From an uncultured Clostridia bacterium (GTDB taxonomy: Bacteria; Bacillota; Clostridia; TANB77; CAG-508): a stretch of 61,139 nucleotides of DNA. How positions within the stretch are numbered: the first letter of the stretch is position 1; each line of letters begins with the position of its first letter. The notes under the pieces were generated by a model, which saw nothing but the letters and a program-made list of their open reading frames with translations, was not told the origin of the DNA and did no database searches. The position numbers were made by a program, and so were the translations under genes. The DNA is taken from NCBI GenBank assembly GCA_944391885.1, contig CALXVE010000002.1:1-61139 (forward strand), given 5' to 3'. Positions 758 to 59,546 of the stretch are shown piece after piece.

Positions 758-1290
758 TTATTGTAAAAAAGCATCCGCATTTGCATATAATTTAGTAAAG
801 TCAAAGCCAGTATAATCTCGCTGTTCAAAGTTAGCTTTATTAATCTTTTTAATTGGTGATTCCTTATTATAATTATTTTTATTTTTTATATTATTTATTA
901 TATCTTTGTCGTTTTCACCTATAGGGTGTAGTTCTTTTTGACCACCTGAATAGTTATTTTTATCTATACCCTCTAGGTATTTTTCACTATACCTATTAGT
1001 CCTTTCTAAAATAGGTATAATTTGTCTTTCTTCAATTTCTTTAGTATCTATTTTATATTTTAAATTAACATCTACATATCCTTTATCTTTTAGTGAACTT
1101 ACTATTTTTGAAACTCTGTCGGAGGTTACATTTACAATACTTGCTATATATTTATTGCTTGCAAAACAACTTCCTGTTTCATCACTTAAATATAAAATCA
1201 TTGATAATATTATTTTTTCTTTGTCTGATAAATCATTGTTTATAAAATTTCTGCTGGAATCCATAATCCTTTTAATTTTTGTTTGCTCAT
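758..1290 (-). pseudogene. HTH replication-initiator/DnaD-like protein of a mobile element, frameshifted near the 5' end
   Basis: ORF 758..1264 (…NNDLSDKEKIILSMILYLSDETGSCFASNKYIASIVNVTSDRVSKIVSSLKDKGYV, a wHTH typical of plasmid/phage Rep-like proteins). A good RBS (ggagag) and the ATG at 1290 open MSKQKLKGLWIPAEIL*, which joins the main ORF only after a 1-nt frame correction in the A/T run at 1238-1251. Confidence 0.5.
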
Positions 1291-4719: not shown

Positions 4720-4733
4720 AGTCAGCCTCCTCA

Positions 4734-4845
4734 TTGAATATTTTTTCCGTTTACGGATTTTTTATTCAATACTATTATATTACAATTCAAACTTTTTTTC
4801 AACACTTCTACTGAATATTTTTTCCGTAACGGAAAAAATATTCAG
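4734..4845. repeat. two copies of a GAATATTTTTTCCGT-centred palindrome upstream of the ATPase gene
   Basis: 4734-4769 is an imperfect palindrome (TTGAATA…CCGTTTACGG…ATTCAA). 4811-4845 is a perfect 16-bp-arm palindrome CTGAATATTTTTTCCG-taa-CGGAAAAAATATTCAG. The 15-nt core is directly repeated 77 bp apart. Confidence 0.65.
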
Positions 4846-4914
4846 TGTACTTTTAATAATTTAATTTTTAAATATATATTTAGAGTATCAATATTTTCTT
4901 GGTATTCACTTTCT

Positions 4915-5035
4915 GCTCGCAAAGAATTGTGAATTTGGCTAGGCAAACGAGTGAGAAGAATCCGAGACGTACTTTTTGTACGTCGCAGGATTTTCGAATG
5001 AAGTCTAACAACGCCAAACGCAATTCTTTGTGAGC
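4915..5035. other. GC-enriched long imperfect hairpin at the mobile-element/glucan-synthase junction
   Basis: Outer arms are 4915-4939 (GCTCGCAAAGAATTGTGAATTTGGC) and 5013-5035 (GCCAAACGCAATTCTTTGTGAGC). The inner hairpin is GACGTAC-ttttt-GTACGTC (4966-4984). Base composition clearly differs from the flanks, and the ORF 4842..5213 loses all GH94 similarity here. Confidence 0.5.
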
Positions 5036-5066
5036 TATGTAAAAACTGTCCACAAGAACAACACAC

Positions 5067-5213
5067 ATGTGTGTATTGTCCGCCGTTTTCCCTTGTTCCT
5101 GGTACATATGCCTTTATATAACCTGGCTCTAATTTGCTTTTATCAAATGGTGGGTCTAGCAGTTTTATTATTCCATTTTCTTTGTCTACCAAGTGATTTT
5201 CTAAGCTTTGCAT
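5067..5213 (-). pseudogene. out-of-frame continuation of the glucan-synthase-like gene (GH94 catalytic-region fragment), truncated at 5067
   Basis: The first 49 aa of ORF 4842..5213 (…LVDKENGIIKLLDPPFDKSKLEPGYIKAYVPGTRENGGQYTH) match the GH94/cellobiose-phosphorylase RENGGQYTH region. Similarity ends abruptly after His (codon 5067-5069). It joins the upstream ORF through a 1-nt frame change near 5241-5250. Confidence 0.7.
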
Positions 5214-23750: not shown

Positions 23751-23812
23751 TTTCTGACCTGTCCCAAATTACCCTAAAATGGGTAAAAAGGGACTGTCCC
23801 TAATTTCGGGAA
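23751..23812. repeat. GTCCC/GGGAC hairpin module adjoining MITE copy 2
   Basis: Sequence: GTCCCaaaTTACCCtaaaatGGGTAAaaaGGGACTGTCCCtaat. The 11-mer GGGACTGTCCC lies at 23790-23800. The AI-2E gene's stop codon (23800-23802) lies inside it. Confidence 0.65.
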
Positions 23813-32245: not shown

Positions 32246-32358
32246 ATTCGTCCCTAGGTAAGACAAAAGTGGTAGATTTGGGACTGTCCCTAATTAAGAC
32301 ACTAGCAGAAGCGTCCCTAAGTCACCCTATTTAGGGTGACTGGGACCCGTCCCCAATT
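32246..32358. repeat. GTCCCTAA/GGGAC repeat-hairpin module adjoining MITE copy 3
   Basis: Contains GTCCCTAGGTAAGAC (32250-64), GGGACTGTCCC (32280-90), GTCCCTAATTAAGAC (32286-300), GTCCCTAA + hairpin GTCACCCT-attt-AGGGTGAC (32313-40), and GGGACCCGTCCCC (32342-54). The spoIIE stop codon (32331-33) is in the hairpin loop. Confidence 0.65.
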
Positions 32359-33350
32359 ACTCCCACTACTACTGTCATGTCGTCTTTTTGTCTGCCAAAG
32401 TCGTTATCTATTGCTTCTTCTAATATTAGGTTAGCTATTTGTTGGGCATCTTTTGTTTCTAAATCTTCTAGTAGATATTTTACCCACAATTCTTTGTTTA
32501 TGTATTCGTTGTTTGCTTCTATCACGCCATCACTGCACATTACTATGATGTCACCTTGTTGTAAGTCATAGTCATATACAACTAGGTCATTTTTTTCTAG
32601 CACTCCTGCTGGTAATGTGGTTGATTTTAGTAATTGTACTTCGCTTCCTCTTTTTACATATGTTGGGCATGCACCATTTTTTATAAATTCCATATTTCCA
32701 TTATATAAATCTAAAATCTGAATATCTAGTGTGGCATACATGTCTTCTTTGCTATTTGCAAGTAATATTGAGTTTATTAATTGTAGTGATGCTTCTTTTT
32801 CAAAACCTGCTTTTAATAGCCTTTCTAGCATTTTTACTGCTATTTTACTACTTTTCATTGCTTCTGGTCCTGAGCCCATACCGTCACTGATTGCTAACAA
32901 ATATTTGCCATCTTCTAGTTTTGTTTCTAAGTGGCTATCTCCTGATACTATTGAATCTGCTTTTGTACTAGAAGATACTCCTATTTGTAATTTGTATTTA
33001 TCTTTTGACATGTATTTAAATTGGCACTGCTCAGCATTTTCCCTTAGTCCACATACTTGTGATTGGATTAAGAATTTATCTCCTAATGATTTAGTTAAAA
33101 TTCTAGATATTTTTTTAATGTCACATTTTGTGCCTTCTATTTCATCACATAGTTTTGTGCATACTTCTACAAAGTACCTACCGGAATTTGCTCTTTTTAT
33201 TTTTAATCCTTCTATTTCAATATCTTTTTCTTTTAATAATGCTTTAATTTCTTGCCTTTTTTCTTCAAATGGGTCAATTTCTTTTTCTTCTTTCATTTCA
33301 TTTGCTAAGTTTGATATGGCATTTGACACTTCTTCCAAACCGAGTAGCAA
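32331..33350 (-). CDS. spoIIE: stage II sporulation protein E, C-terminal PP2C phosphatase part (separate ORF because of a frame break)
   Basis: Contains …GDSHLETKLEDGKYLLAISDGMGSGPEAMKSSKIAV…MCSDGV…DDMTVVV, the PP2C/SpoIIE domain. It overlaps the upstream ORF at 33298-33350 in a different frame. Confidence 0.8.
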   Translation of the reverse strand: MLLGLEEVSNAISNLANEMKEEKEIDPFEEKRQEIKALLKEKDIEIEGLKIKRANSGRYFVEVCTKLCDEIEGTKCDIKKISRILTKSLGDKFLIQSQVCGLRENAEQCQFKYMSKDKYKLQIGVSSSTKADSIVSGDSHLETKLEDGKYLLAISDGMGSGPEAMKSSKIAVKMLERLLKAGFEKEASLQLINSILLANSKEDMYATLDIQILDLYNGNMEFIKNGACPTYVKRGSEVQLLKSTTLPAGVLEKNDLVVYDYDLQQGDIIVMCSDGVIEANNEYINKELWVKYLLEDLETKDAQQIANLILEEAIDNDFGRQKDDMTVVVGVIGDGSQSP

Positions 33351-34848
33351 CAGTTCTTTTGCTTTCTTCCATTTTCTTTTTCCAGATGAAATTAATTTTG
33401 CTCATCCTATATGAAGAATTAATTGCTTTAATCATTTTAGATACATCTTGTATTACTTGCTCATTTTTTTCGTAAAATCCTACCAAGTAATTATTATGTT
33501 TTTCTAAAATTCCCACAAGCTGTTTTTCTGTTATTACATCTTCTTTTAATAAGAGATGAAAAATATCATCTATTATTCCATTTTGGTTTTCATATATTTC
33601 ATCATATAGCATGTTTTCTTCAAGTTCTTGCAAATTTATTCTCAATTCTTCTATAAAAATTTGCTCATTTGATAGTTCTTGTTGTCTTAGGTCTTCTTCA
33701 CTTATAACTGTGCTTGCCGCTTCACCATAGCTTTTTGCCATTTCACTTATTGCCTCTGACATGTTGTTTAGCTTAAATATTGCATCTTCATTTTCTGTTA
33801 AGCTTCTGCCTGCAAGTGTGGTTTCTGGTAATAGTTTTTCTTTTCCGAAAAAATCTTGTATGTCTATTTTTACTTTTTTAGGAACTGCTAACAATCCTAA
33901 AAATGCAATTAAAATTTCTTGAATAAGTATTACAGGCACTGTGTTGCCATTTGCAACATATGTTAATGCAATGTTACCTAGTATAAACCCAATTACTACA
34001 CCAATTTTGCCAAGCCTATTAAATAGCCCTGCTATCATACCAGATATGGCATATGAAGCAACTAAAATTGGCTCTGAGCCACTTATTATTCCAAGTGTAA
34101 CTCCTATTAGCACACCAGATGTTGCACCTATCAGCATGCCATTTTTCCAGCCTAAAATTAGTACAATTAAAATACTTAATATATTTTTTACGCTATAGCC
34201 AAAAATTGTAAAATTATCTAATGCACAAATTGCAATTGCAAGTAGTAAGCTTGTCCCCATTACTTCTTCTACTGAAAATACTGTTTTTTTGCCAAATTCT
34301 TTAATAATTGGTATACTGTTTGCAAATATTTTGTAAAATACAAAACTACTAATTGCTAGCATTATGCTTGTTAGCAAGTCATAAACATAAAAACTGGTAA
34401 AAAACATTGGTATTATTTGCACTACAAGTACTGATATAAAAAGCCTAGATCCAAGCCTTCTTTGTTCATTTACTATTTCTTCTTCTCTTGGTCTTTTAAA
34501 TAATACTAGTGCAAAAAATACAAGTGTTGTTATGAAATATGTAAAAAGGCTATTTGTACCAAATTTTAGCCATGTTCCTATTAATGTTAATATGTACACT
34601 ATTCCAACTGGTGAATAATTGCTAAGCATTGCTGCCAAAAAGCTAATTGCAAATGGGCTTATGCTAAGCATAAAATTTTCCGAACTAAATCCAACCATTG
34701 AAATTAAGAAACTTATGGTGTATAAAATAATATTTTGTATGTTAAAAAGATTTTTTAAAATCTCTTTTATTGATTTTCTACTTTTTATTTCTTCTTGCTC
34801 ATTTTCGTTATTTTGATTTGTAAAATCCTTTAATATATTTTGAAACAC
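33298..34848 (-). CDS. spoIIE: stage II sporulation protein E, N-terminal multi-TM and regulatory part
   Basis: 516 aa with about 10 TM segments followed by a cytoplasmic linker. It ends in 20 aa of out-of-frame sequence (…RFGRSVKCHIKLSK). Together with 32331..33350 it gives a normal-length SpoIIE. Confidence 0.8.
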   Translation of the reverse strand: MFQNILKDFTNQNNENEQEEIKSRKSIKEILKNLFNIQNIILYTISFLISMVGFSSENFMLSISPFAISFLAAMLSNYSPVGIVYILTLIGTWLKFGTNSLFTYFITTLVFFALVLFKRPREEEIVNEQRRLGSRLFISVLVVQIIPMFFTSFYVYDLLTSIMLAISSFVFYKIFANSIPIIKEFGKKTVFSVEEVMGTSLLLAIAICALDNFTIFGYSVKNILSILIVLILGWKNGMLIGATSGVLIGVTLGIISGSEPILVASYAISGMIAGLFNRLGKIGVVIGFILGNIALTYVANGNTVPVILIQEILIAFLGLLAVPKKVKIDIQDFFGKEKLLPETTLAGRSLTENEDAIFKLNNMSEAISEMAKSYGEAASTVISEEDLRQQELSNEQIFIEELRINLQELEENMLYDEIYENQNGIIDDIFHLLLKEDVITEKQLVGILEKHNNYLVGFYEKNEQVIQDVSKMIKAINSSYRMSKINFIWKKKMEESKRTVATRFGRSVKCHIKLSK

Positions 34849-47460: not shown

Positions 47461-49563
47461 TTAGTTATTTGTTTGTGTACTTGGTATTGCAGTTGTATCT
47501 TCATTTAATTTTTTTGAATTCATCCCAAAGTATTTTTGTATAATCTCTTTTCCTGCAGGTGCTACATTTCCACCTGCTCCTGCATTTTCTATAACAACTA
47601 CCACTGCTATTTCCGGGTTATCATATGGTGCAAACCCTGCAAACCAGCCATTTACCTCATCATCAACGCCCGTTTCTGCAGAACCAGTCTTTCCACCAAT
47701 GTCCATACCTAAATCATGGAAAACATAGTATGCAGTACCGCCAGACTCACTTGTAACCCCTTTCATACCTTTTCTTATGGCATCAAGAGTTTCCTCTTTA
47801 ATGTTTAAGTCTGGTACATTTGCGCTATCATCAATACCTAATTTTGCATTTACTTTTTGCTCTATTTCTTCTTTTGATACTGTATTTCCATTTGCATCTG
47901 TTACAGATTTTATGATTGATACATCAATTGCTTTTCCGCCATTTGCTATCATGCTTATATATCTTGCAACTTGAATTGGAGTATAGCTATTATAGCTTTG
48001 ACCTATTGCAGATGATAATGTCTCACCCAATTGCCACTCTTCCCCTGTTTGCTCCTTTTTATATTCTTTTGTTGCTACAATTCCAGGTGATTCGCCAGAT
48101 AATTCTATTCCAGTTTTTTTACCTAATCCATATTTATATGCATAATCTGCAATTGTGTCAATTCCTAGTCTATATCCCGCTTCATAGAAATAATAGTTAC
48201 ATGAATATTTAATTGCTTCTATTATATTTATGTTTCCATGCCCATAATGCCTATCTGTGTAAATCCAACAAACCGGATGATGCCCTAATGGATATGGTCC
48301 ATTATCATTTACCAATGTTGAAGTTGTAAATTTCCCTGTTTCAAGTGCAGCTGTTGCAACAACCATTTTAAAAGTAGAGCCTGGTGCATATCTGCTAGAA
48401 ATTGCCCTATTATACAAATTGCTACCTTTTTCATATTCTTTTAGCTTTGCTTCACTAATTCCTTCAAAAAACAATTCTGGCTCATAACTTGGATAGCTTG
48501 CTAATGCCAAAACCTCACCAGTTTTTATATTCATTACTACAGCAGCCCCTGCTTTGCAGTCATATTTTGTATTATCATATGCTCCATTTGCAATTTCTTT
48601 TATATTTTTTTTAAGCGCGCTTTCTACCTCTTTTTGCAAATTAGCATCAATTGTTAAAGCAACATTATCACCTGCTATGGCATCTTGTGCAATTGCTTCT
48701 TCTGTTATAGTTCCATCAACCGCCATATCAATTTGTTTTACTCCATCTTGCCCTTTTAAATATTCCTCTAATGTATACTGAATTCCAGACCTTCCTATTA
48801 CATCATTCATTTTGTATATTTCTTTGTTCTCGTTATATTCTTGCTCATTAATGCTTCCAACATATCCTAACAAATGTGCAGCCAAACTGCCATATGGATA
48901 TTCAATAACAGGACTTGTTTCTATTGAAGTTCCTGGGAATTTGTCGCTTTGCTCTTTTATTTGGTTCGCACTTTCCCTGCTTATGTTTTTAGAAATTGTA
49001 ATTGATTTAATATTGCTAAACCCACCAATTGTAGCCTCATAGCGTACAGTCATTATTTTTAAAGCATCTTCATCATTATCACTATTAATTTCATATCTTT
49101 CCTTTAAGATATTAAAAACTTGCTCTGGTGTAGCATTTTCATCAATTTCATTATTTATCTTCCACGCTTTTTGTTCTTCTTCAGTTTCTTGTTCAAATTC
49201 TATTGGGTTTACTTTTAAAGGCAAATTATCTATATACTTGTCCTTATTTTTTTCTAATAAATTAATTAAATTTAATATTGTATTATTTAATGTTTGATTA
49301 TCTATCTTAGTTTTAAATAACTCTAAACTAAATCCCATCTCTGTAGTTACTAGTTTATTTCCACTGCTATCTGTAATATCTCCCCTTGCAGCCTTTATGG
49401 TTGATTCTCTTGTTAACCTTGTATTTGAAGTTTCTAAATATTCTTTTCCATGAATAACTTGGAGATTAAATAATTGTGCAAGCAAAATAATACCCACTAT
49501 AATAACAATAATGGAAAGTATGTTATACCTTATTTTTCCCCCATAACTTTCTCTTGCTCGCAT
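47461..49563 (-). CDS. penicillin-binding protein 2 (class B transpeptidase, elongation type)
   Basis: 700 aa with an N-terminal TM and a PBP dimerisation region. Transpeptidase motifs: STFK (GSTFKMV), SCN (KYSCNYY), KTGS (GGKTGSAE). Located in the mre cluster. Confidence 0.8.
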   Translation of the reverse strand: MRARESYGGKIRYNILSIIVIIVGIILLAQLFNLQVIHGKEYLETSNTRLTRESTIKAARGDITDSSGNKLVTTEMGFSLELFKTKIDNQTLNNTILNLINLLEKNKDKYIDNLPLKVNPIEFEQETEEEQKAWKINNEIDENATPEQVFNILKERYEINSDNDEDALKIMTVRYEATIGGFSNIKSITISKNISRESANQIKEQSDKFPGTSIETSPVIEYPYGSLAAHLLGYVGSINEQEYNENKEIYKMNDVIGRSGIQYTLEEYLKGQDGVKQIDMAVDGTITEEAIAQDAIAGDNVALTIDANLQKEVESALKKNIKEIANGAYDNTKYDCKAGAAVVMNIKTGEVLALASYPSYEPELFFEGISEAKLKEYEKGSNLYNRAISSRYAPGSTFKMVVATAALETGKFTTSTLVNDNGPYPLGHHPVCWIYTDRHYGHGNINIIEAIKYSCNYYFYEAGYRLGIDTIADYAYKYGLGKKTGIELSGESPGIVATKEYKKEQTGEEWQLGETLSSAIGQSYNSYTPIQVARYISMIANGGKAIDVSIIKSVTDANGNTVSKEEIEQKVNAKLGIDDSANVPDLNIKEETLDAIRKGMKGVTSESGGTAYYVFHDLGMDIGGKTGSAETGVDDEVNGWFAGFAPYDNPEIAVVVVIENAGAGGNVAPAGKEIIQKYFGMNSKKLNEDTTAIPSTQTNN

Positions 49564-49578
49564 TTATTCCTCCAAACT

Positions 49579-50133
49579 TTAAAAATATCTAGTAAGTACT
49601 TCTTTTTTCTTAAACAAGTTTTCTACGTAATTTCCAACCCTTTGAATAATTGGATATAATATAATTACTAGGGCAATATTGAAAATAATTTCTAATGCTA
49701 ATATTTTTAAAAATGGCAATATTTCAATTAAAGCCCCCCACCTTATAACCTGAAAAAGATAAGAACCAATTTCATAAAAAGCGGTGCTTCCTATCACCAT
49801 TAAAATTATAGTAACTCTGCTATCTTTTGAAAAATTTTTATCCAAGTATTCGCCTATTAATCCAACAAGCCCAAGCATTATTCCAGAAATACCAACCGCT
49901 TTACCTAGCATTAAGTCTAAGTAAATACCAAATATCAAACCAAATACAAAACCCAATTTTCTGCCTATAAAAAGCCCTATAAATAGCACCAATACTATAA
50001 ACAGATTAGGCATTACTCCAGATATGGTGAACCATGTAAAAAAATTTGCTTGCAAAAAATATATAACAAAAAATGTTAAAATTAAACATATAATTGTAAG
50101 AAATTTTTTCAAACTTTCACCACCTCTCATCAC
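49579..50133 (-). CDS. mreD: rod shape-determining protein MreD
   Basis: Polytopic small membrane protein directly after mreC. The start is uncertain: the ATG pair at 50133/50130 lies inside the heptamer array, and the TTG at 50112 has GAGGTGG 6 nt upstream. Confidence 0.65.
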   Translation of the reverse strand: MMRGGESLKKFLTIICLILTFFVIYFLQANFFTWFTISGVMPNLFIVLVLFIGLFIGRKLGFVFGLIFGIYLDLMLGKAVGISGIMLGLVGLIGEYLDKNFSKDSRVTIILMVIGSTAFYEIGSYLFQVIRWGALIEILPFLKILALEIIFNIALVIILYPIIQRVGNYVENLFKKKEVLTRYF

Positions 50134-50179
50134 TCACCTCTCACCTCTCATCACTCACCTCTCACCTCTCATCACTCAA
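50117..50179 (-). repeat. heptamer array (8 clean + 1 degenerate units; 21-nt superperiod x3) between mreC and mreD
   Basis: Minus strand: TTGAGTG ATGAGAG GTGAGAG GTGAGTG ATGAGAG GTGAGAG GTGAGTG ATGAGAG GTGGTGA. The mreC stop TGA (50172-74) is part of the first unit. Confidence 0.9.
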
Positions 50180-50987
50180 TTATCACCAACACCGTCTCTA
50201 TTTTTTTAAAGTCAACTGCTGTTTCTACATATGCATATCTGTCTGTAATATTTTTTGTATCTACAATTTCTTTAATCGTTCCAATTGTAATTCCCTTTGG
50301 GTATATACCACCAATTCCAGAAGTTTCAACCTTATCATTTTCAAGCACTTTAGCTTCTGTTGGTATATATGTAGCCTTTAGGGTAGAGGCTTTTTCCAAT
50401 GTACCTGTAACAATTATTGCCTCATCAGAAGTACTCATTGTAGCACTTACAGAACTTGCAGTATCTATAATTGTTTGAACCTTTGCAGTAGTTTGAGTAG
50501 TAGAAATTACATGTCCTACTAGCCCTTGGTCTGCAATAACCGTCATATTAGGCTTAACACCATCTTTTTCACCAATATTTATCACAATTGTATTATTATA
50601 ATTTGTAATATCTTTGTTAATAACATATGCTGGGATTGTCTCATATTCATTATATTTATCTTTTAAATTCACATATTCTTTTAATGTTTCATTTTCTGCT
50701 TTTAATATTTCAAGTTCTCTTAATGATTGCTCAAGCTGACTGTTTTTTGTTTTAAGTTCCTCATTTTCCTTTTGCAAATTGCTAATATCATCAAAAAAAC
50801 TGTTATTTCCTTCCACCTTATTTTTTAGATATGTTAAACCATTTTGAATCGGCATTACAAGGCTATTAAAGGCATTTTCTATATAGGACATATTTTTAAT
50901 ATCTATATTAGATAAAATAACTACTAAAATTAAAATAATAATAGTTATAATAATCCCAATAATTCCTGTTTTTTTGTTTCGGTACAT
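50172..50987 (-). CDS. mreC: rod shape-determining protein MreC
   Basis: 271 aa with an N-terminal TM, a coiled coil (LQKENEELKTKNSQLEQSLRELEILKAENETLK), and a C-terminal beta domain …GLVGHV…SGIGGIYPKGI.IG. Confidence 0.85.
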   Translation of the reverse strand: MYRNKKTGIIGIIITIIILILVVILSNIDIKNMSYIENAFNSLVMPIQNGLTYLKNKVEGNNSFFDDISNLQKENEELKTKNSQLEQSLRELEILKAENETLKEYVNLKDKYNEYETIPAYVINKDITNYNNTIVINIGEKDGVKPNMTVIADQGLVGHVISTTQTTAKVQTIIDTASSVSATMSTSDEAIIVTGTLEKASTLKATYIPTEAKVLENDKVETSGIGGIYPKGITIGTIKEIVDTKNITDRYAYVETAVDFKKIETVLVIIE

Positions 50988-51007
50988 TAAAATTCTCCCT
51001 TTTTAAT

Positions 51008-52036
51008 TTATCTCCTTCTAGAGTTTATTAAAACATCCCTTAATTTTTCTAAATCTTCCAAAGTTTTTTCTGCACCCCTTGCTACACACTCTAGTGGATT
51101 TTCAGCAATATATACAGGCATTTCAGTTTCTTGTGCTAGCAATGTATCAATTCCTTGAATTAGTGCTCCACCGCCAGATAAAACAATTCCTCTTTCCATA
51201 ATATCAGATGCAAGCTCTGGTGGAGTTCTTTCTAAAGTTTGCTTAACAATATCTACAATCTTTTGAATTGATTCGTTCATTGCCATATACACTTGTGTAG
51301 AAGTTATTGTTAATGTTTGTGGGTATCCAGTAAGTAAATCCCTGCCACTAATTTGCATACTAGTTTCTGTTACTGGCAAAATTGCACAGCCTATTTGCTT
51401 TTTTATTTGCTCTGCAGTGGTTTCGCCTATAGCAAGGTTCATTTCCCTTTTTACATAGTTTATGATGTCTTCATCAATTTCATCACCTGCTATTCTCAAA
51501 GAATTACTTACAACAATTCCACCTAGTGAAATAACGGCAACTTCTGTAGTTCCACCACCAATATCAACTATTATATTTCCACTTGGCTCAGAAACCTCTA
51601 AATTTGCACCTATTGCAGCTGCCATTGGTTCTTCTATTAAATACACCTCTTTAGCACCTGCTTGCATTACAGATTCTTCCACAGCCCTTTCTTCAACCTC
51701 TGTAATCCCAGATGGTACACCAACCACAACCCTAGGTTTACCCGCATTATACCTTTGGCAAACTCTTTGCAACATGCTTTTAAGCATTATTTGTGTTGCA
51801 GTATAATCTGCAATTACACCATCTTGTAATGGTCTAATAGCTTTTATATCTTTAGGTGTTCTTCCTAGCATTTCCTTTGCTTCTGAACCAGTTGCCAAAA
51901 TTCCACCTGTTTTTTTATCAATTGCAACAACAGAAGGCTCATTTAACACAATACCTTTTCCCTTAAGTGTTATAATAATATTTGCAGTTCCTAAATCCAC
52001 ACCAATATCTTTTGTATTAAAACCTAAAAACCCCAT
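51008..52036 (-). CDS. mreB: rod shape-determining protein MreB
   Basis: 342 aa: DIGVDLGTANI…NEPSVVA…DGVIAD…IDIGGGTTEVAVISLGG…, an actin-like MreB. Confidence 0.95.
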   Translation of the reverse strand: MGFLGFNTKDIGVDLGTANIIITLKGKGIVLNEPSVVAIDKKTGGILATGSEAKEMLGRTPKDIKAIRPLQDGVIADYTATQIMLKSMLQRVCQRYNAGKPRVVVGVPSGITEVEERAVEESVMQAGAKEVYLIEEPMAAAIGANLEVSEPSGNIIVDIGGGTTEVAVISLGGIVVSNSLRIAGDEIDEDIINYVKREMNLAIGETTAEQIKKQIGCAILPVTETSMQISGRDLLTGYPQTLTITSTQVYMAMNESIQKIVDIVKQTLERTPPELASDIMERGIVLSGGGALIQGIDTLLAQETEMPVYIAENPLECVARGAEKTLEDLEKLRDVLINSRRR

Positions 52037-52114
52037 TGTTTCATTTCCTTTCTTTGTATTTAGACAGTATCAAAATTTTCATGTGAGAAACCAGTAGTTG
52101 CCATCTATGCTTAG

Positions 52115-52170
52115 CCTTCAAACTCTAACTTTCAATTTCTAACCTCTGACCTCTAATTTCTAACTTCTAA
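52115..52170 (-). repeat. heptamer array (8 units, TTAGA type) between radC and mreB
   Basis: Minus strand: TTAGAAG TTAGAAA TTAGAGG TCAGAGG TTAGAAA TTGAAAG TTAGAGT TTGAAGG. The radC stop TAG (52153-55) and its last codons lie inside the array. Confidence 0.9.
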
Positions 52171-52860
52171 ACACGATTTTATACTTGTATATTGATTATA
52201 CCCAATTACAATATGATCTAGTAATAAAACTCCTAAAATTTCAGCTGCTTTTTCCAATCTTTTAGTAAAAGTAATATCTTCAATGCTTGGTTTTGCATTT
52301 CCACTTGGATGATTATGAATAACAATAATTTTAGGTGCACCAATTTTTACCGCTTCCATCAATATATCTTTTGTATTCACTTGTACTGAACTAGTTCCTC
52401 CTTGTGATATGGTTTGTATTTTAAGGATAACATTTTGAGAATTCATAATTACTACTTTCACTATTTCCCTTTTTTCTGTTTTTAATTCATCCATAAACAA
52501 ATTTGCAATATCTTCTGGTGTTTTAATTTTAATTTTTATTTCTTTAATCGGTTTTGAAATACGCTTTGCCAATTCACAAGTAGCTTTTAATTGAATAGCT
52601 TTCACTTTTCCTATTCCTTTAATTTGCATAAACTCCTCTATGGACAACTCTTGCAAAAACTTTAAATTATCTTCTTTGCAATTTTTACTTTTACTTAGTG
52701 AAAGTATTTTTTGTGCTAGAGTAACTGAACTTTCATCCTTTGTTCCACTCTTAATAATTATCGCTAGTAACTCTGCATTAGATAATGTATTTGCACCATA
52801 CATTTCTAGTTTTTCGTAAGGTCTTTCTGAAATAGGGAGTTCTTTCATTTTAACTGACAT
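52153..52860 (-). CDS. radC: RadC-family JAB/MPN domain protein (UPF0758)
   Basis: The ELPISERPYEKL…LSNAELLAIII N-terminus, HhH region and JAMM motif VIHNHPSGNAKPS identify the family. The start MSVKMKEL (ATG 52860) follows aaagga. Confidence 0.8.
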   Translation of the reverse strand: MSVKMKELPISERPYEKLEMYGANTLSNAELLAIIIKSGTKDESSVTLAQKILSLSKSKNCKEDNLKFLQELSIEEFMQIKGIGKVKAIQLKATCELAKRISKPIKEIKIKIKTPEDIANLFMDELKTEKREIVKVVIMNSQNVILKIQTISQGGTSSVQVNTKDILMEAVKIGAPKIIVIHNHPSGNAKPSIEDITFTKRLEKAAEILGVLLLDHIVIGYNQYTSIKSCLEVRN

Positions 52861-52926
52861 AAAAATCAATCCTTTCTATATAAAATTGCCCCCTATTAAA
52901 TTTTTTGAATTAAATATATAAGATAG

Positions 52927-53184
52927 TTAAATTTTCTTATAAACAAATATTGCTAAAACAATTCCTAATATACTTGCTATGTTTATTTTAAACATTAATG
53001 CAAAAGTAACTTTAATTACATTTAAATCTAGTTCTATTGGTGAGGTTAAGCCAAATTCTTCTCCATATGATAGCCATGATAAAAAGCTAACATTTGAAGC
53101 CAATTCTCCAAGTAATCCCCCTACCACTATTCCTGATAATATAAATAAAATTAAAATCCATATACTTTTTTCTCTAACTGCCAT
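52927..53184 (-). CDS. DUF4321 family small membrane protein
   Basis: 85 aa with two TMs. The sequence …GIVVGGLLGEL…LSYGEEFGL.SPIELDL.VIK.TF… and the position upstream of radC-mreB are typical for DUF4321. Confidence 0.6.
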   Translation of the reverse strand: MAVREKSIWILILFILSGIVVGGLLGELASNVSFLSWLSYGEEFGLTSPIELDLNVIKVTFALMFKINIASILGIVLAIFVYKKI

Positions 53185-53234
53185 CTTTCGTTTCTCCTTT
53201 TTTTATTATGGCAGTAGAGATTAATAATATAAAC

Positions 53235-53262
53235 ATCTCACTGCTCACATCTCGTTACTCAG
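53235..53262 (-). repeat. heptamer array (4 units) at the start of the DUF4321-radC-mre leader
   Basis: Minus strand: CTGAGTA ACGAGAT GTGAGCA GTGAGAT, beginning 3 nt after the -10 box. Confidence 0.75.
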
Positions 53263-53264
53263 AT

Positions 53265-53293
53265 ATTATATATGCAAATAGCTTTTTTTTCAA
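53265..53293 (-). promoter_or_regulatory. sigma-A type promoter of the DUF4321-radC-mreBCD operon
   Basis: Minus strand: TTGAAA (53293-53288), 17 nt spacer, TATAAT (53270-53265). Confidence 0.5.
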
Positions 53294-53462
53294 GATATTA
53301 AATTATTATTTCATATATTTTTTTAAAACTATTCACTTTTTATTTTAATTGTGCTATATTATGAATACAAAATCAATAATTTTCCATAAATTGTTGGTTT
53401 CATTTATTAAGCAAAAGTAGTATAATATTAATATACTAGGAAAATATATGGAGGCAATTTTA

Positions 53463-54092
53463 ATGAAGTTTGAGAAACTAAGTGAAAATAAAATAAGAAT
53501 TACCCTTACAATTCAAGATTTAGTTGAAAAGGAAATTGATTTTCATGTTTTTATGTCTAACTCAATTGAGTCACAGGATATTTTATTAGATATGCTCGAA
53601 CAAGCAAAAAAAGAAACAGGTTTTGACCCAGAAAATTATAATCTAAAAATAGAAGCTTTGGCTATGGCAGATAAAAGTTTTATTTTTACAATAACTAAGG
53701 ACGTTCCTGAAGAAAAAGTTAAGGCTCCAAAGAAAAAATTTGTTGTTAAAAGAAAAACTTTAAGTCCTTCTTCGACACAAGCAATTTACTCTTTTAATAG
53801 TTTTGATGATTACTGTAATTTTCTTCAGTTTTTAAAAGATAGTAATTTGTTTGATAACATTCAAGCTATAGCAGATTCAGTTACACTTTATGAATATAAA
53901 GAAAAATATTATTTATTATTAGATTCAATACATACCGATATTGTTAGTAAATTAAAATTTTATTCTACTATTACAGAATTTGCCAAATATGTTACAAATT
54001 CAAAATTATTTTATTGTAAATTAACAGAATTCGGAAATTTAATAATGAAAAATAATGCACTACAAATTGGTTTTGAGCATTTTGTTAATTAG
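53463..54092 (+). CDS. mecA: adaptor protein MecA
   Basis: MKFEKLSENKIRITLTIQDLVEKEIDFH… is a MecA-type N-terminus (M.IE…TI.V.L..DL.ERG), and the length is about 210 aa. The ATG at 53463 follows ggagg (the track starts 15 nt earlier). Confidence 0.6.
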   Translation: MKFEKLSENKIRITLTIQDLVEKEIDFHVFMSNSIESQDILLDMLEQAKKETGFDPENYNLKIEALAMADKSFIFTITKDVPEEKVKAPKKKFVVKRKTLSPSSTQAIYSFNSFDDYCNFLQFLKDSNLFDNIQAIADSVTLYEYKEKYYLLLDSIHTDIVSKLKFYSTITEFAKYVTNSKLFYCKLTEFGNLIMKNNALQIGFEHFVN

Positions 54093-54140
54093 AGGTTAGA
54101 AGTTGTACGCTAATACTATAAATAATATTTTTACATCATT

Positions 54141-54187
54141 AAAAATAGAGTATTTTACTAATCAAATTGTAAAATACTCTATTTTTC
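54141..54187. terminator. bidirectional terminator between mecA and the M23 peptidase gene
   Basis: AAAATAGAGTATTTTA-ctaatcaaattg-TAAAATACTCTATTTT: a 16-bp stem with A/T runs on both sides. Confidence 0.6.
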
Positions 54188-54204
54188 TTAATTATTCATT
54201 GCAC

Positions 54205-54274
54205 TTCTCACTACTCACATCTCACCACTCACATCTCGCTGTTCACTTCTCACCACTCACATCTCACCACTCAA
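54205..54274 (-). repeat. heptamer array (10 units) in the 3' UTR of the M23 peptidase gene
   Basis: Minus strand: TTGAGTG GTGAGAT GTGAGTG GTGAGAA GTGAACA GCGAGAT GTGAGTG GTGAGAT GTGAGTA GTGAGAA. It starts at the base after the TAA stop (54275-77). Confidence 0.9.
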
Positions 54275-55273
54275 TTAATATATATAATTTTGTGGATTTT
54301 GTAATACACCATTTACTCTTATCTCTAAATGTAAATGTGGTCCTGTTGAATTACCTGTAGAACCAACTTTTGCAATTACTTGCCCTTGTGATACTTTTTG
54401 ACCTTTTTTTGCTATTAGTTGACTACAATGACCATAAACAGTTTGCACACCATTTCCATGTGAAATTATAATCATATATCCATATGAGCTATTCCAACCG
54501 GCTGTAGTTACTGTACCCCCTGCGGCAGCTTTTATAGGTGTTCCCGTAGGTGCCGAAATATCAAGCCCTCTATGCCCTGTTGGGCTTGTGCTTCCTCTAC
54601 TTCCAAAACGGCAAGTTATTATTCCAGATATTGGTTTTATCAAACTAATGCCAAGATTTACTTTTTTGGTAGATGCACCAGTTACATTACCAGAAGAAAT
54701 TGAAGCCATATATGTTACTTTTGGTTTTGGTGCCTCATATAATTTTGATACACATTTTTCAACAGAAGTAAATTTTTTAGTTTCTGTATCATATTTTTCT
54801 ACAATACCAATTTCATTTTTATTTTGGCTATTTTTCTTTTTAAGTTGTGCAACTACCTTTTCTGCTTCATCAAAGGTTTCTACATATACTTTTTCCTTTT
54901 TATCATCTGTAATAGCATAGTATTTATAGTATTTAGTGCCATTTTCAGTTACTTTTGCATATATTTCATCATCATTTGGTGTAATATCCTTTTTTAGTAA
55001 GCAAAGTGTATAATCTGGTACACTATCAATTTGTGCAAAAGCAATTCCTTCTTCTGTTTCGCCTTCCATGTATTGATTAATTTTTGTTTGCAATTCAGCC
55101 TTATTTTCTGTATACCCAATAACCTCGCCATTTAATGATACGGCATAAGTTGGCTTATAAAATACTGCTACTGCAGTAATAATTAAAAATAAAGAAATAA
55201 GGACTAAAAAGATATATTTAATTGTTGCTCTAAAGTACATTGCGCACTTTTTTAAGGTTTTAATTTTAAACAA
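54275..55273 (-). CDS. M23 family metallopeptidase with N-terminal membrane anchor
   Basis: HRGLDISAPTGTPIKAAAGG…YGHCS…GSTGNSTGPHLHLEI are M23/LytM signatures. The start is uncertain (TTG at 55273 abuts the RBS; an internal ATG lies 33 nt downstream). Confidence 0.8.
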   Translation of the reverse strand: MFKIKTLKKCAMYFRATIKYIFLVLISLFLIITAVAVFYKPTYAVSLNGEVIGYTENKAELQTKINQYMEGETEEGIAFAQIDSVPDYTLCLLKKDITPNDDEIYAKVTENGTKYYKYYAITDDKKEKVYVETFDEAEKVVAQLKKKNSQNKNEIGIVEKYDTETKKFTSVEKCVSKLYEAPKPKVTYMASISSGNVTGASTKKVNLGISLIKPISGIITCRFGSRGSTSPTGHRGLDISAPTGTPIKAAAGGTVTTAGWNSSYGYMIIISHGNGVQTVYGHCSQLIAKKGQKVSQGQVIAKVGSTGNSTGPHLHLEIRVNGVLQNPQNYIY

Positions 55274-55371
55274 CTCCTTACTTTTTTAATTTACTATATT
55301 ATTTTATATCAAATTAAAAAAATAAGCAAGAGATTTTAAAATATTCTTACAACTTTTGAAGCATGTCACTA

Positions 55372-55420
55372 TTAAAGACAAAAGTGCCGCTTTAGGGACT
55401 GTCCCCAAAAGCGACACTTT
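55372..55420. terminator. long hairpin terminator carrying GGGACTGTCCC at its tip
   Basis: AAAGTGCCGCTTTAGGGAC-t-GTCCCCAAAAGCGACACTTT, with T-runs on both strands, directly after the cotF-like stop at 55426. Confidence 0.6.
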
Positions 55421-55425
55421 TTATT

Positions 55426-55671
55426 TTATTGCTCTAATTCTGTTTTTACAGTTTGTATTTCTGTAATTGTTGCTTTTTGTGCTGGTTGATAATATCCTTT
55501 TGTTTGTGCAACTTTAAATAATTCATACTGAAAACTTTCATCATTATTACGTATTTGTTGCAAAGTTTGTCTTAATTGCATATTTTCCGCTTCTGAAATT
55601 GCAGTTTGATATGCTGTTAAATCAGATTTAACATTGCTTAAAATATCATTTACCATTGTTTTCTCGTCCAT
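55426..55671 (-). CDS. spore coat protein, CotF family
   Basis: 81 aa: …NDILSNVKS.L..YQTAISEAEN.QLRQTLQQIRNNDE.FQYELFKVAQTKGYY.PA, the Coat_F domain pattern. Confidence 0.7.
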   Translation of the reverse strand: MDEKTMVNDILSNVKSDLTAYQTAISEAENMQLRQTLQQIRNNDESFQYELFKVAQTKGYYQPAQKATITEIQTVKTELEQ

Positions 55672-58300: not shown

Positions 58301-59500
58301 TTATACTTCTAATAGCCAGTCTATTATATTTATTTTTCTTATTCCATTATAGTCTGCTTCTAAATCCCTATCCATTGTTAATAAATATTTAGGATAAAAA
58401 TCTCCCGTCTTTTGTAATGGTTTTAGTTCTCTTTCTAAGGTCACTTCTTCTCTTGTGGTTAATGATACCTGGTAATATTCCAAACCATTTTTATTTTCTG
58501 CTATAAAATCTATTTCCAAGTCGTCTACCTTTCCTGCATATACTTTATATCCTCGTCTTAACAATTCTAAATAAACTATATTTTCCAGTATATGTCCCAT
58601 ATCTTGTCCCGCTTTTTTTCCAAGCAGATGTGCTCTAAATCCCATATCAACTACATAATATTTATACCCACTCGCAAGGACATTTTTTCCTTTTGCATCA
58701 AATTTATCAACTTTATATAATAAAAAAGCATCTATTAATGCAGAAATATAATTTTCTACTGTATGATTACTTGTGGCTCTATTCATGCTTGTTAAAGTAT
58801 CACTTATTTTTTTAGTACTTATTGAACTACCTATATTATTAAAAATATATTTTATAATACTTTCTAGTAACATTTGATTATTTATATTATTTCTTTGCAT
58901 TACATCCTTGTATATAACAGTAGTAAATACTCCATCTATATAGTTTTCTATTAAATCTGGATTTGATTTAAATAATTCTACTGTTAGTGGTAATGAGCCA
59001 TATTTTAAATAATCTAATAATTTTTCTTGTTTATCTATATTTTGTTCAAATGCAGACATATATTCTTTGAAAGATAATGGCAACATTTTTATTTCTACAT
59101 ACCTACCTGAAATTAAAGTTGCTAGTTCACCAGACAGAAGATATGCATTTGAGCCTGTTATATATAAATCAATATTTTTATCTATATATAAACTGTCAAT
59201 AGCTTTTTGAAATTCTTCCACACGCTGAACTTCATCTATAAAAACATAGTTTTTTTTGTCATTAACTAATCTTTCTTTTATATAATTATATAACTCTGTA
59301 TAATCTTTAAAACTATAGTCTTGACTTTCTAGATTTAGTTTTATTATTTGTTCATCTTGTATTCCTTGCTCTTTTAAATAATTAATATATATGTCAAATA
59401 AAGTAGATTTACCACATCTTCTAATTCCAGTTATAATTTTAATTAAATCTTTGTCTTTGAAGTCTATCAGCTTTTTCAAATAAAAATCTCTTGCTATCAT
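58301..59500 (-). CDS. AAA+ ATPase (AAA_14) with DUF4143 domain, second copy
   Basis: GIRRCGKSTLF, VFIDEVQ, and C-terminal …LEIDFIAE…YYQVS. The start MIARDFYL (ATG 59500) follows gaggtga. Same architecture as 3478..4719 but a diverged sequence. Confidence 0.8.
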   Translation of the reverse strand: MIARDFYLKKLIDFKDKDLIKIITGIRRCGKSTLFDIYINYLKEQGIQDEQIIKLNLESQDYSFKDYTELYNYIKERLVNDKKNYVFIDEVQRVEEFQKAIDSLYIDKNIDLYITGSNAYLLSGELATLISGRYVEIKMLPLSFKEYMSAFEQNIDKQEKLLDYLKYGSLPLTVELFKSNPDLIENYIDGVFTTVIYKDVMQRNNINNQMLLESIIKYIFNNIGSSISTKKISDTLTSMNRATSNHTVENYISALIDAFLLYKVDKFDAKGKNVLASGYKYYVVDMGFRAHLLGKKAGQDMGHILENIVYLELLRRGYKVYAGKVDDLEIDFIAENKNGLEYYQVSLTTREEVTLERELKPLQKTGDFYPKYLLTMDRDLEADYNGIRKINIIDWLLEV

Positions 59501-59546
59501 AGTTTTCACCTCATATATAGTATACAATTATAATGTTGTTATGTCA

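Follow-up and report, generated by a model that had tools for sequence, protein, structure and literature searches.

Why should the gene ends of a cell-shape cluster in an uncultured gut Clostridia bacterium carry tandem heptamers, and do these repeats form a conserved regulatory element? Five such tracts share a 4.2-kb part of the window, the whole 61,139-nt stretch of DNA considered here; the analysis covered ~82 kb of this species' genome. Gene coordinates are based on ORF calls, and Pfam families were taken from the called genes of identical contigs. Together these place, in the region considered (49579..55273, minus strand), an M23 peptidase gene (54275-55240), a DUF4321 gene (52927-53184), radC (52153-52860), mreB (51008-52036), mreC (50172-50987) and mreD (49579-50113, the MreD start inferred by alignment with relatives) on the minus strand, with mecA (53463-54092) as the sole plus-strand gene of the cluster. 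A promoter-like site on the minus strand (TTGAAA-17-TATAAT, 53265..53293, 11/12 consensus matches) is the best promoter match in the 9.7 kb scanned and would set a transcription start ahead of DUF4321-radC-mreBCD; it is kept in L132, which is without the array. Between the convergent M23 peptidase gene and mecA, fold and sequence predict an intrinsic terminator acting on both strands (54141..54186, an 18-bp stem with T-runs on either side), and the other haplotype has a homologous hairpin.

The five tracts (A1 to A5) were found where the first-pass annotation had placed them and with the unit numbers it gave, its coordinates for A1, A3 and A5 being 1 nt off the T[G/T]AG register. A1 fills the mreC-mreD spacer (50116..50178, minus strand) with eight clean units and a degenerate TGGTGAA. 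On the gene strand it reads TGAGTGA TGAGAGG TGAGAGG, repeated 2.67 times, a perfect 21-nt period (TRF score 116). The mreC stop TGA (50174-50172) falls in its first unit, and its last units supply the Shine-Dalgarno (SD) sequence of mreD, which starts with TTG at 50113. A2, in the radC-mreB spacer (52115..52170, minus strand), has eight units (TTAGAAG TTAGAAA TTAGAGG TCAGAGG TTAGAAA TTGAAAG TTAGAGT TTGAAGG), five of them with the T[GT]AG core. The radC stop TAG (52155-52153) is supplied by its third unit, which puts its first letter 15 nt ahead of that stop, and ~78 nt of non-repeat sequence separate it from the mreB ATG at 52036. A3 opens the DUF4321-radC-mreBCD leader (53234..53261, minus strand) 3 nt past the -10 hexamer, with four units (TGAGTAA CGAGATG TGAGCAG TGAGATG; core in 3/4). 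A4 (54089..54109) is a stub, TTAGAGG TTAGAAG TTGTACG, whose first unit contains the mecA stop TAG (54090-54092); it is the sole plus-strand array and stands behind the sole plus-strand gene. A5 (54204..54273, minus strand) belongs to the M23 peptidase 3' UTR. Its ten units (core in 8/10) follow a 14-nt superunit, TGAGTGG TGAGATG, and run from 1 nt past the stop TAA (54277-54275) to ~17 nt short of the terminator hairpin.

These arrays are real and far beyond chance, and each lies on the sense strand of its adjacent gene. The pattern (TKAGNNN)x2+TKAG has 11 matches against 0.14 expected, all of them on the minus strand in A1, A2 or A5, and a six-unit pattern has 3 against 0.00. The arrays are nearly free of C (5 C in 217 nt, compared with 11.2% C on that strand; P = 9e-7). 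The strict 7-nt period holds throughout. The formula T-(G/T)-A-G-N-N-R, proposed for all five tracts, fits 23/31 minus-strand units (T[GT]AG alone, 24/31). Apart from T-rich low-complexity runs, a lag-7 self-match scan and TRF turned up nothing else in the 61 kb to compare with these arrays, as had been claimed for the window; the genome has more, 9-10 kb past the window's right end. No Rfam family matched, even at E <= 1, and RNA folding predicted no structure common to the arrays.

Unrelated junctions carry the unit family as well. The same strain and species has two or more further arrays beyond the window, at the 3' ends of ddl and murF, and in two other lineages of this gut Clostridia family such units stand at different loci, mreB-mreC and sbcD-sbcC. 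Units of the form TTAGARG occur at radC, mecA, ddl, murF, the M23 gene of the other haplotype and in both other lineages. The proposed separation of GTGAG-type from TTAGA-type arrays is wrong, since one array of a related strain (L298 9851-9922) mixes TGAGAAG/TGAGAGG with TTAGAGG/TTAGAAG units; all arrays belong to one heptamer family, TTAGARG / TGAGNRG. Ten of 11 arrays either begin no more than 4 nt from the upstream stop codon or overlap it, and the sense orientation together with this anchoring at gene ends indicates that they are not randomly placed. They are clustered as well: five share 4.2 kb and two share 1.3 kb.

Comparison among strains revealed how these arrays change. A1 has five length alleles (59/66/73/94/101 nt) separated by 7-nt steps, corresponding to 8-14 units, in strains whose radC-to-minC flanks are mostly 98.5-100% identical. 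The degenerate A2, A3, A4 and A5 are invariant in all window-haplotype strain contigs carrying them (A2 in 13/13). In the other haplotype the A3 site has six TTAGAAG-type units and the A5 site three, four or five TTAGAGR-type units, and the other mecA haplotype lacks A4. When the window haplotype is aligned with other strains, the blocks end exactly at A5/A4 and at A3, with identity passing from 97% to 89% and then to 99.1-99.9%, which marks a mosaic segment bounded by arrays. Elsewhere, two strains have ddl arrays one unit apart in length, and L157 and L238 likewise differ by one unit.

Strict register had been read as a sign of constraint; absence or instability in close relatives, which the first-pass annotation had named as evidence against its reading, is largely what the comparison shows. 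At 93-96% nucleotide identity, L131 retains just 2-3 units at three of the sites (two at A2, three at A5), L132 and L133 have none at the A2 site, and the next species has no arrays at the orthologous positions; its spacers, and those of the nearest outgroups, measure 18-36 nt. The 160 mre loci of the family (2.4 Mb) hold arrays in no lineage but the window species and one other. The sbcD-sbcC junction shows what may precede an array: in the window species it reads GGAT-TAG-AAG-AAAGGAG...TTG, a single proto-unit TTAGAAG (T+TAG+AAG), and in a sister species it holds seven units (GGA-TAG-AGG TTAGAAT TTGGAAG TTAGAAG TTAGAAT TTGGAGG TTAGAA). At murF-ddl, all that remains in the sister species is TGAAGTAGAGGCTGGAAAC.

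We consider it probable that the arrays are lineage-specific heptanucleotide long simple-sequence repeats, seeded on a stop codon and the SD purines behind it and grown by slippage. Each would have nucleated on a short purine-rich sequence at an operon junction or gene end, a TAG or TGA stop followed by SD-like purines, then expanded and contracted in 7-nt steps through slipped-strand mispairing at replication, while point mutation and local homogenisation altered its units. Since the stop codon is part of such a seed and the seed is on the coding strand, the array is expected on the sense strand, starting at the stop, purine-rich, nearly C-free and with a stop triplet in most units, without any selected function. 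Stops in all three frames follow from this, and they are present in A1, A2, A3 and A5 as first described, but A4 has no stop in one frame. Both the stop triplets and the XAG every 7 nt are best read as by-products of the seed. The arrays would be transcribed within mRNAs, as intercistronic spacer, 5' leader or 3' UTR, and probably tolerated as nearly neutral since they are unstructured, cannot give rise to long spurious ORFs and do not disturb the SD and start codon downstream. We also count in favour that instability scales with repeat purity, the 100% pure 21-mer of A1 being variable and the degenerate A2-A5 invariant.

Several observations fit slippage less well. The same positions (M23 3' end, leader, radC-mreB and mreC-mreD) are occupied in haplotypes 88-97% identical, which could reflect selection for an array rather than shared ancestry. 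Clustering is not predicted by independent seeding and needs local spread or a local cause. A3, in a leader, and A4 and A5, in 3' UTRs, have no downstream SD, so that a stop+SD seed suits them less. Sense orientation in all arrays is unexpected under pure slippage; it could instead reflect the replication strand, nearly all genes lying on one strand, and the two-unit A4 is the sole array that separates these explanations.

Repeats of this kind have precedents. Heptanucleotides are reported to be the most abundant class of long simple-sequence repeats in prokaryotes, with polymerase slippage given as the cause (Mrazek 2007, cited in PMC4679880 and PMC4692102). The GGGAATC heptamers of Xanthomonas, the GGGGA(T/C)T heptamers of Nostoc and the cyanobacterial STRR (Rehm et al. 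2015, PMC4692102) are likewise tandem 7-nt units, far longer than chance, intergenic, close behind the upstream ORF (mean 28 nt in Xanthomonas) and also found inside operons (pecE-pecF). There too a single unit family is spread over many loci, the same gene pairs are occupied with length and sequence differing between close relatives, some arrays form inverted pairs, and slippage is the proposed origin (PMC4692102). Unlike these, the present arrays are composed of A, G and T only, do not form G4 structures and sit in a 29% GC Clostridia genome; all those seen are sense-strand, whereas Xanthomonas heptamers show no strand preference (PMC4692102), and they are anchored on the stop codon itself. 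The direct TAACTGA repeats found in marine Beggiatoaceae, cyanobacteria and Bacteroidetes (MacGregor 2015, PMC4679880) also contain stop triplets (TAA, TGA), are intergenic and mostly forward relative to the adjacent gene, occur beside essential genes and inside operons, and are sporadically distributed; for them a role as RNA-binding-protein or ribosome site is only proposed (PMC4679880). They differ in forming short sets (2-6 copies) immediately upstream of start codons in place of an SD, whereas the present ones have their anchor at the upstream stop, a normal SD downstream and heterogeneous units.

Copy number might alternatively make the arrays tunable cis-acting mRNA elements that set translation or stability of the downstream cistron, through spacer length, decoy SD sites, mini-ORF content or a hairpin with a downstream complementary arm. 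We regard this as unlikely. In its favour, A1 stands right before the mreD SD and is truly polymorphic. Only 0.7% of composition-matched shuffles reach its mean anti-SD duplex energy of -8.7 kcal/mol, and two in every three units give a match of -11.7 kcal/mol. The SD-likeness noted for many units holds for A1 alone; that of A2-A5 does not exceed that of shuffles, which have stronger best sites. The mreC stop and an ATG overlap (UGAUG), and each A1 allele encodes a chain of 4-12 codon mini-ORFs, the last ATG lying in frame with mreD; a C-free T/G/A sequence full of start and stop codons is, however, expected to contain mini-ORFs. The model would be (ATCTTTC)n in the 5' UTR of Haemophilus influenzae hmw1A/hmw2A, a transcribed heptamer repeat with strain-variable copy number that forms a hairpin cut by RNase III (PMC12721329). 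Its repeat arm can pair with a complementary downstream arm, and comparable pairing is predicted between 53207-53221 and the 3' half of A3 (-15.1 kcal/mol, z = -2.3) and for L157/L238 and L299, in which an inverted C-rich array follows the array, so that a hairpin, long but imperfect, can form (z = -2.0 in L157). But no predicted structure is common to the arrays, most of which, including A1 (MFE -2.2 kcal/mol, z = 0.08) and A5, are unstructured, and variation in the sample is limited to A1. Moreover, hmw is a surface adhesin contingency gene, processed by RNase III, with expression inverse to repeat number (PMC12721329), whereas mre, ddl and murF are housekeeping rather than typical contingency genes, and related species get by on their short spacers.

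A platform for an oligomeric RNA-binding protein that co-regulates the transcripts bearing arrays, such as a HutP-like XAG reader or a KhpA/B-, CsrA- or S1-like protein, appears improbable. TRAP, to which the arrays had been likened, also reads repeated XAG on single-stranded RNA; its sites in the trp leader need 2-3 nt spacers, and spacing thus excludes it. The likeness to HutP of the Bacillus hut leader does hold in geometry, as XAG recurs at 7-nt intervals in the sense direction and the arrays are single-stranded and C-free: HutP binds three XAG at this spacing per face and recognises the A and G (PMC2425495). Its target comprises two sets of three XAG joined by a 12-17 nt linker and flanking a terminator stem, site II lying in the stem, in the hut operon with hutP upstream (PMC2425495); none of this context is present at the arrays, which have 2-14 units varying between strains. 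A5 ends close before its terminator, the unit family is common to many loci in three lineages, and many flanking genes serve the cell envelope (murF, ddl, M23 peptidase, mreBCD), but the sister-species array at sbcD-sbcC belongs to a DNA-repair operon, most units of L153 (TTGGAGG, TCGGATG, TCAGATG) have no XAG/stop core, and the next species has not conserved the arrays. No RNA-binding-protein family had a Pfam match among the scanned window ORFs of at least 110 aa or the precomputed cluster-gene hits. The comparative data support neither this platform nor the stop/re-initiation pad that the first-pass annotation had suggested beside it.

Least probable of all is a DNA-level role as recombination junctions or sites for DNA-binding or nucleoid proteins, in line with speculation on cyanobacterial STRR and on long TAACTGA arrays: the array-bounded mosaic segment and the 21-bp superperiod of A1, equal to two helical turns, would suit it, but only two boundaries are known, any intergenic region would resemble a breakpoint because the arrays themselves do not align, no candidate protein is known, and orientation relative to transcription is left unexplained.

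Slippage-grown repeats seeded at stop codons, comparable to the cyanobacterial STRR or the heptamers of Xanthomonas or Beggiatoa, remain our preferred reading. In this lineage of gut Clostridia the arrays behave not as a conserved regulatory element but as fast-evolving, strain-variable minisatellites of a kind known in other bacteria.

Five period-7 heptamer arrays, A1 to A5, lie where the first-pass annotation had placed them; all are present in the sequence and reported by TRF, although the coordinates given for three were shifted by 1 nt. Nearly all genes of the region are encoded on the minus strand, on which A1 (50116-50178) reads (TGAGTGA TGAGAGG TGAGAGG) x2.67 followed by TGGTGAA, a perfect 21-nt repeat with a TRF score of 116. 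A2 (52115-52170) holds eight units of the TTAGAAG type, A3 (53234-53261) four units, and A5 (54204-54273) ten, in which the 14-mer TGAGTGG TGAGATG is the underlying repeat, all three on the same strand. A4 (54089-54109) is a two-unit stub on the plus strand, TTAGAGG TTAGAAG and then TTGTACG, at the stop of mecA, the sole plus-strand gene. Detection relied on TRF and a regular expression, as lag-7 autocorrelation at strict thresholds missed degenerate arrays. TRF periods were 7, 14 and 21, and T[GT]AG is present in 24 of the 31 minus-strand units. Across the 61-kb window, whose GC content is 29%, the pattern (TKAGNNN)2TKAG matches 11 times against 0.14 expected, exclusively in the arrays and on the minus strand, and the six-unit T[GT]AG form 3 times against 0.00 expected; as had been proposed, no other comparable period-7 array occurs there. 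C is rare in the arrays: it makes up 11.2% of the minus strand but only 5 of 217 array nucleotides (P ~9e-7). The stop triplets said to fall in all three frames do so in A1, A2, A3 and A5.

According to Pfam matches on the called genes of identical contigs, the gene order is PcrA/UvrD, a 62-aa ORF, CoatF, an M23 peptidase, mecA (convergent), DUF4321, radC, mreB, mreC, mreD, PBP2 and minC. A1 spans the interval from the mreC stop, a TGA inside unit 1, to the mreD start. Alignment with relatives supports a TTG at 50113 (MKKF...) as this start, giving a protein of 177 aa, and the last units of A1 thus supply the Shine-Dalgarno (SD) sequence of mreD. The gene is also found mis-called from an ATG or GTG inside A1 (window 50113-50133), at 183-184 aa. 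A2 starts 15 nt before the radC stop, and the TAG of radC is that of the third unit. A5 starts 1 nt after the M23 stop and ends ~17 nt before a bidirectional terminator hairpin with an 18-bp stem (54141-54186). A3 starts 3 nt past the -10 hexamer of a promoter-like site, TTGAAA-17-TATAAT (53293-53265, minus strand), the best in the region and kept in a related species without the array; from its position right after this hexamer, A3 probably forms the 5' end of a transcript. The RNAs of A1 and A5 are predicted to be unstructured, and for A3 a pairing is predicted between its 3' half and complementary sequence further downstream (-15.1 kcal/mol, z = -2.3). Rfam 15 covariance models gave no match at gathering score in the whole window and none at E <= 1 in 49400-55500. 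An RNA structure common to the arrays was rejected, since none is predicted and no Rfam model matches.

The arrays are best read as long simple-sequence repeats (LSSRs) with a heptanucleotide unit, forming a family specific to this lineage. As in LSSRs and the heptamer repeats of cyanobacteria (STRRs), in which a unit of 5-11 nt is repeated head to tail for longer than chance allows, the unit here is 7 nt. The arrays occupy non-coding positions, namely spacers, a leader or 3' UTRs, and coding sequence extends into their first units only at the ends of radC and ddl, by no more than 2-5 codons, and with the stop of mecA. They also vary between strains by whole units, which is the signature of slippage. 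Heptamers are described as the most abundant prokaryotic long-SSR class and ascribed to polymerase slippage (Mrazek 2007, as related in PMC4679880 and PMC4692102). In Xanthomonas and Nostoc they are intergenic, close behind the upstream ORF, also within operons such as pecE-pecF, and they occupy the same gene pairs with lengths that differ between relatives (PMC4692102). The TAACTGA repeats of Beggiatoaceae, cyanobacteria and Bacteroidetes likewise carry stop triplets, lie in forward orientation and have no agreed function (PMC4679880).

Metagenome contigs of the window species, retrieved by exact-protein look-ups, show how the arrays differ among strains. A1 has five length alleles of 59, 66, 73, 94 and 101 nt (8-14 units), and most of the strains that carry them share 98.5-100% identity from radC through minC; the alleles differ by whole units and a few substitutions, and the 3'-most units and the SD are constant. 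A2, A3, A4 and A5 are invariant in all contigs of the window haplotype that carry them. An assembly artefact was rejected, given that identical alleles come from independent samples and assemblers and that all length differences are multiples of 7. A scaffold of another strain (L006) has a run of N at ~6060-6160, in the DUF4321 leader, exactly where other strains have the leader array, an example of how short-read assemblies break at the arrays.

In other strains, the segment from M23 through mecA to the leader is present as a diverged haplotype (96% identity for M23, 88% for mecA) and is joined to an mre part that is 99-100% identical. Window 53263-54276 and its flanks form a recombination mosaic: in alignment with these strains, identity is 97% on the M23 side, 89% in the mecA block and 99.1-99.9% from DUF4321 onward, and the limits of the blocks coincide exactly with A5/A4 and A3. 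In the diverged haplotype, a TTAG-type array of three, four or five units (CTAGAGG TTAGAGA TTAGAAA...) follows the M23 stop, and another of six units stands right after the -10 box. Rapid switching between TGAG and TTAG units at one site was rejected, as the two types sit on diverged haplotypes, that is, on a recombinant segment. In the GTDB representative of the species (L131, 93-96% nucleotide identity in genes), there are 3 units after M23, 2 at radC-mreB and ~3 degenerate ones at mreC-mreD. The comparison with close relatives, proposed in the first-pass annotation as a refuting check, goes largely against a conserved functional element: A1 changes length in 7-nt steps among near-identical strains, L131 has 2-3 units and the nearest outgroups have no array.

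The family extends past the window, with seven loci in the ~82 kb read from the species. A sixth array lies on the same contig of the same strain, ~9.3 kb beyond the right end of the window (L294 709-763), at the ddl stop and in the ddl-HD spacer. Its units are TAGAGG TTAGAAG TTAGAGG TTAGAGG TTAGAAG TTGGAAT TTGGAAT TTAGATG, and the Ddl of this strain is two residues longer at the array than in relatives (357 vs 355 aa). Another strain of the species (L298) has one unit more in its ddl array (11058-11117) and carries a seventh array (9851-9922), directly after the stop of a murF-like gene, in which TGAGAAG/TGAGAGG and TTAGAGG/TTAGAAG units are mixed. The first-pass annotation had set GTGAG-type arrays apart from TTAGA-type ones, a division that this array contradicts; with both units in one array, the two types belong to one family.

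We surveyed 160 mre loci of the taxonomic family, half of them from species representatives (80 loci, 1.44 Mb) and half from metagenome contigs of the human gut (80 loci, 0.95 Mb). The closest MreB match in the genome collection was the MAG CALXUZ01 'BRZ_DN bin3' (99% identity), and the MreB-anchored loci assign the window to an uncultured lineage of gut Clostridia, with 'Clostridium sp. CAG:567/508/575/389' and Candidatus Merdicola among its relatives. Among the 160 loci, heptamer arrays of this type were present only in the window species and in one further lineage (L153, L157 and L238), where they are found after the mreB stop and ahead of the mreC SD. L153 has 12 units, many of which (TTGGAGG, TCGGATG) contain neither a stop triplet nor an XAG core, the triplet read by HutP; in L157 and L238, which differ by one unit, an inverted C-rich array comes after 6-7 units. 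The MreB proteins of the three loci are 97% identical to each other, hence a single extra event, and an mre-specific association drawn from these arrays after mreB was rejected as resting on one lineage. The nearest outgroups of both array lineages have compact spacers of 18-36 nt and no array. A species with 90% identical MreB (L132) has in its mreC-mreD spacer, instead of a heptamer array, a 254-nt insertion (11918-12171) with a long inverted repeat (AAGCCTTTATACTATTATCTTTT ... AAAAGATAATAGTATAAAGGCT), and a relative (L186) contains ~ten AT-rich arrays of a different heptamer family (AATGAAT / ATTCATT), in both orientations, within 2 kb (15676-17740). A six-unit T[GT]AG scan of viral contigs returned at least 120 matches; among the matches listed these were mainly unrelated heptamer microsatellites, including plant-type TTTAGGG telomere repeats and apparent cyanobacterial TTAGTGA/TTAGGGG arrays, and the low-GC ones listed were intergenic and in both orientations.

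A probable origin of the arrays is illustrated by a sister species (L299 and L303) whose Ddl is 83% identical. Its murF-ddl junction shows only TGAAGTAGAGGCTGGAAAC in place of an array, and an array is also absent from ddl-HD. At its sbcD-sbcC junction, it has seven TTAGARG-type units followed by inverted CTAAT-type units (L299 17631-17677, L303 11364-11410). The orthologous junction of the window species reads GGAT-TAG-AAG-AAAGGAG-N11-TTG, with one TTAGAAG at the stop, composed of T, the stop codon and the first purines of the SD. This single proto-unit against seven units, together with the graded alleles, supports stop/SD seeding followed by slippage. Arrays would be seeded on a stop codon and purine-rich SD sequence at gene ends, would grow and shrink by replication slippage, fastest in the purest array, and would later degenerate and homogenise. 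Ten of the 11 arrays overlap the upstream stop codon or begin <=4 nt from it, and all lie on the sense strand of the upstream gene, the exceptions being the secondary inverted arrays of L157/L238 and L299. Given such a seed, each unit would contain a stop triplet, an XAG would recur every 7 nt, stops would fall in all three frames, and the arrays would be sense-oriented and anchored at stop codons, with no function invoked.

Seeding does not fully explain why the arrays cluster locally (five lie in 4.2 kb and two in 1.3 kb) or why diverged haplotypes keep them at the same four positions. Nor does it fully account for arrays in a leader or 3' UTR, where no SD follows, or for the repeated occurrence of an inverted arm downstream with which an array can pair (A3, L157/L238, L299). 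This last feature recalls the heptamer hairpin in the hmw 5' UTR of Haemophilus influenzae, processed by RNase III (PMC12721329). Clustering, persistent positions, SD-less arrays and inverted-arm pairing keep two functional readings alive. That the arrays act in cis as a 'rheostat' is unlikely, and that they are a platform for an RNA-binding protein is distinctly improbable. Phase variation of the contingency type, in which a repeat inside an ORF or between -35 and -10 turns expression on or off as its unit number changes, differs from the present case, as no array reaches into a reading frame by more than the last codons and A3 lies downstream of the -10 and not between the hexamers.

The platform reading draws on the likeness to HutP, which holds for the geometry: the arrays present three XAG at 7-nt spacing and are predicted to be single-stranded, and HutP binds three XAG at 7-nt spacing per face, recognising the A and the G (PMC2425495). 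The arrays differ from the two-site form of HutP targets, in which two XAG sites separated by a 12-17 nt linker flank or enter a terminator stem that precedes the regulated genes. A terminator is close to A5 alone; it stands at the end of a gene, its stem contains no XAG set spaced by 7 nt, and no regulated gene directly follows it. The hut context is missing as well. Pfam scans of 30 window ORFs and the precomputed Pfam matches of the cluster genes contained no RNA-binding-protein family, HutP included. A TRAP site has 9-11 (G/U)AG triplets with spacers of 2-3 nt, and the suggested likeness to it does not survive the strict period of 7, with a spacer of 4 nt throughout. In a more elaborate proposal, a ring-shaped or multimeric RNA-binding protein with the 7-nt geometry of HutP would bind the sense-strand XAG arrays multivalently and couple cell-envelope operons post-transcriptionally, with array length as the dose. 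We regard it as highly speculative; if true, it would tie together murF-ddl, the M23 peptidase and radC-mreBCD in these gut Clostridia lineages. A cell-envelope theme is visible among the array genes (murF, ddl, M23, mreBCD), and a cell-wall regulon was considered, but it is weakened by the sister-species array in sbcD-sbcC, a DNA-repair operon, and by the grouping of the arrays in two tight physical clusters.

A role as SD mimic or ribosome decoy was rejected for all arrays except A1: with the canonical Firmicute 16S 3' tail assumed as anti-SD and composition-matched shuffles as control, the claim that many units are SD-like stands only for A1, where complementarity is strong and exceeds that of shuffles. 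The others are on average level with their shuffles, and their best sites fall short of those in shuffles. In A1, the mreC stop also overlaps a start codon (UGAUG), and mini-ORFs of 4-12 codons follow one another in a chain; this is expected by composition, given a C-free T/G/A sequence dense in start and stop codons.

The window holds further features. A GC-rich intergenic repeat with the palindrome GGGACTGTCCC occurs at 23790-23800, 32280-32290 and 55395-55405 (3 copies vs 0.06 expected), and also in L294 5516-5600, L298 6705-6760 and L131 5786-6092; some copies have a conserved neighbour, CACTTTTGTCTT...TAGGGAC. In a genome of 29% GC, the repeat is a candidate REP/MITE-like element or small-RNA family. 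Two overlapping minus-strand ORFs (32331-33350 and 33298-34848) together make up SpoIIE, one with the N-terminal membrane part and the other with the PP2C phosphatase domain, a split that could reflect a frameshift, a pseudogene or an assembly error. A giant GH94-family protein of 2471 aa (5236-12651, minus strand) is followed by a 123-aa ORF (4842-5213, minus strand) matching the next part of the GH94 catalytic domain, an apparent frameshift near the 3' end. At the left end, a truncated Mob_Pre plasmid-recombination enzyme and an HTH_36 protein (77-505 and 758-1264, minus strand) suggest a mobile-element remnant, and two AAA_14/DUF4143 paralogues lie at 3478-4734 and 58301-59527.

For decades, dispersed heptamer repeats have been known in cyanobacteria, Xanthomonas, Beggiatoaceae and Bacteroidetes, with no agreement on their origin and function, and in the literature we found no earlier description of such arrays for Firmicutes. 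The arrays are sites where gene callers mis-set starts, as in mreD, and VNTR markers for strain typing of this uncultured species. The locus adds a low-GC lineage of gut Clostridia to the known carriers of heptamer repeats, and its most useful aspect is a clear birth-and-growth series at orthologous junctions.
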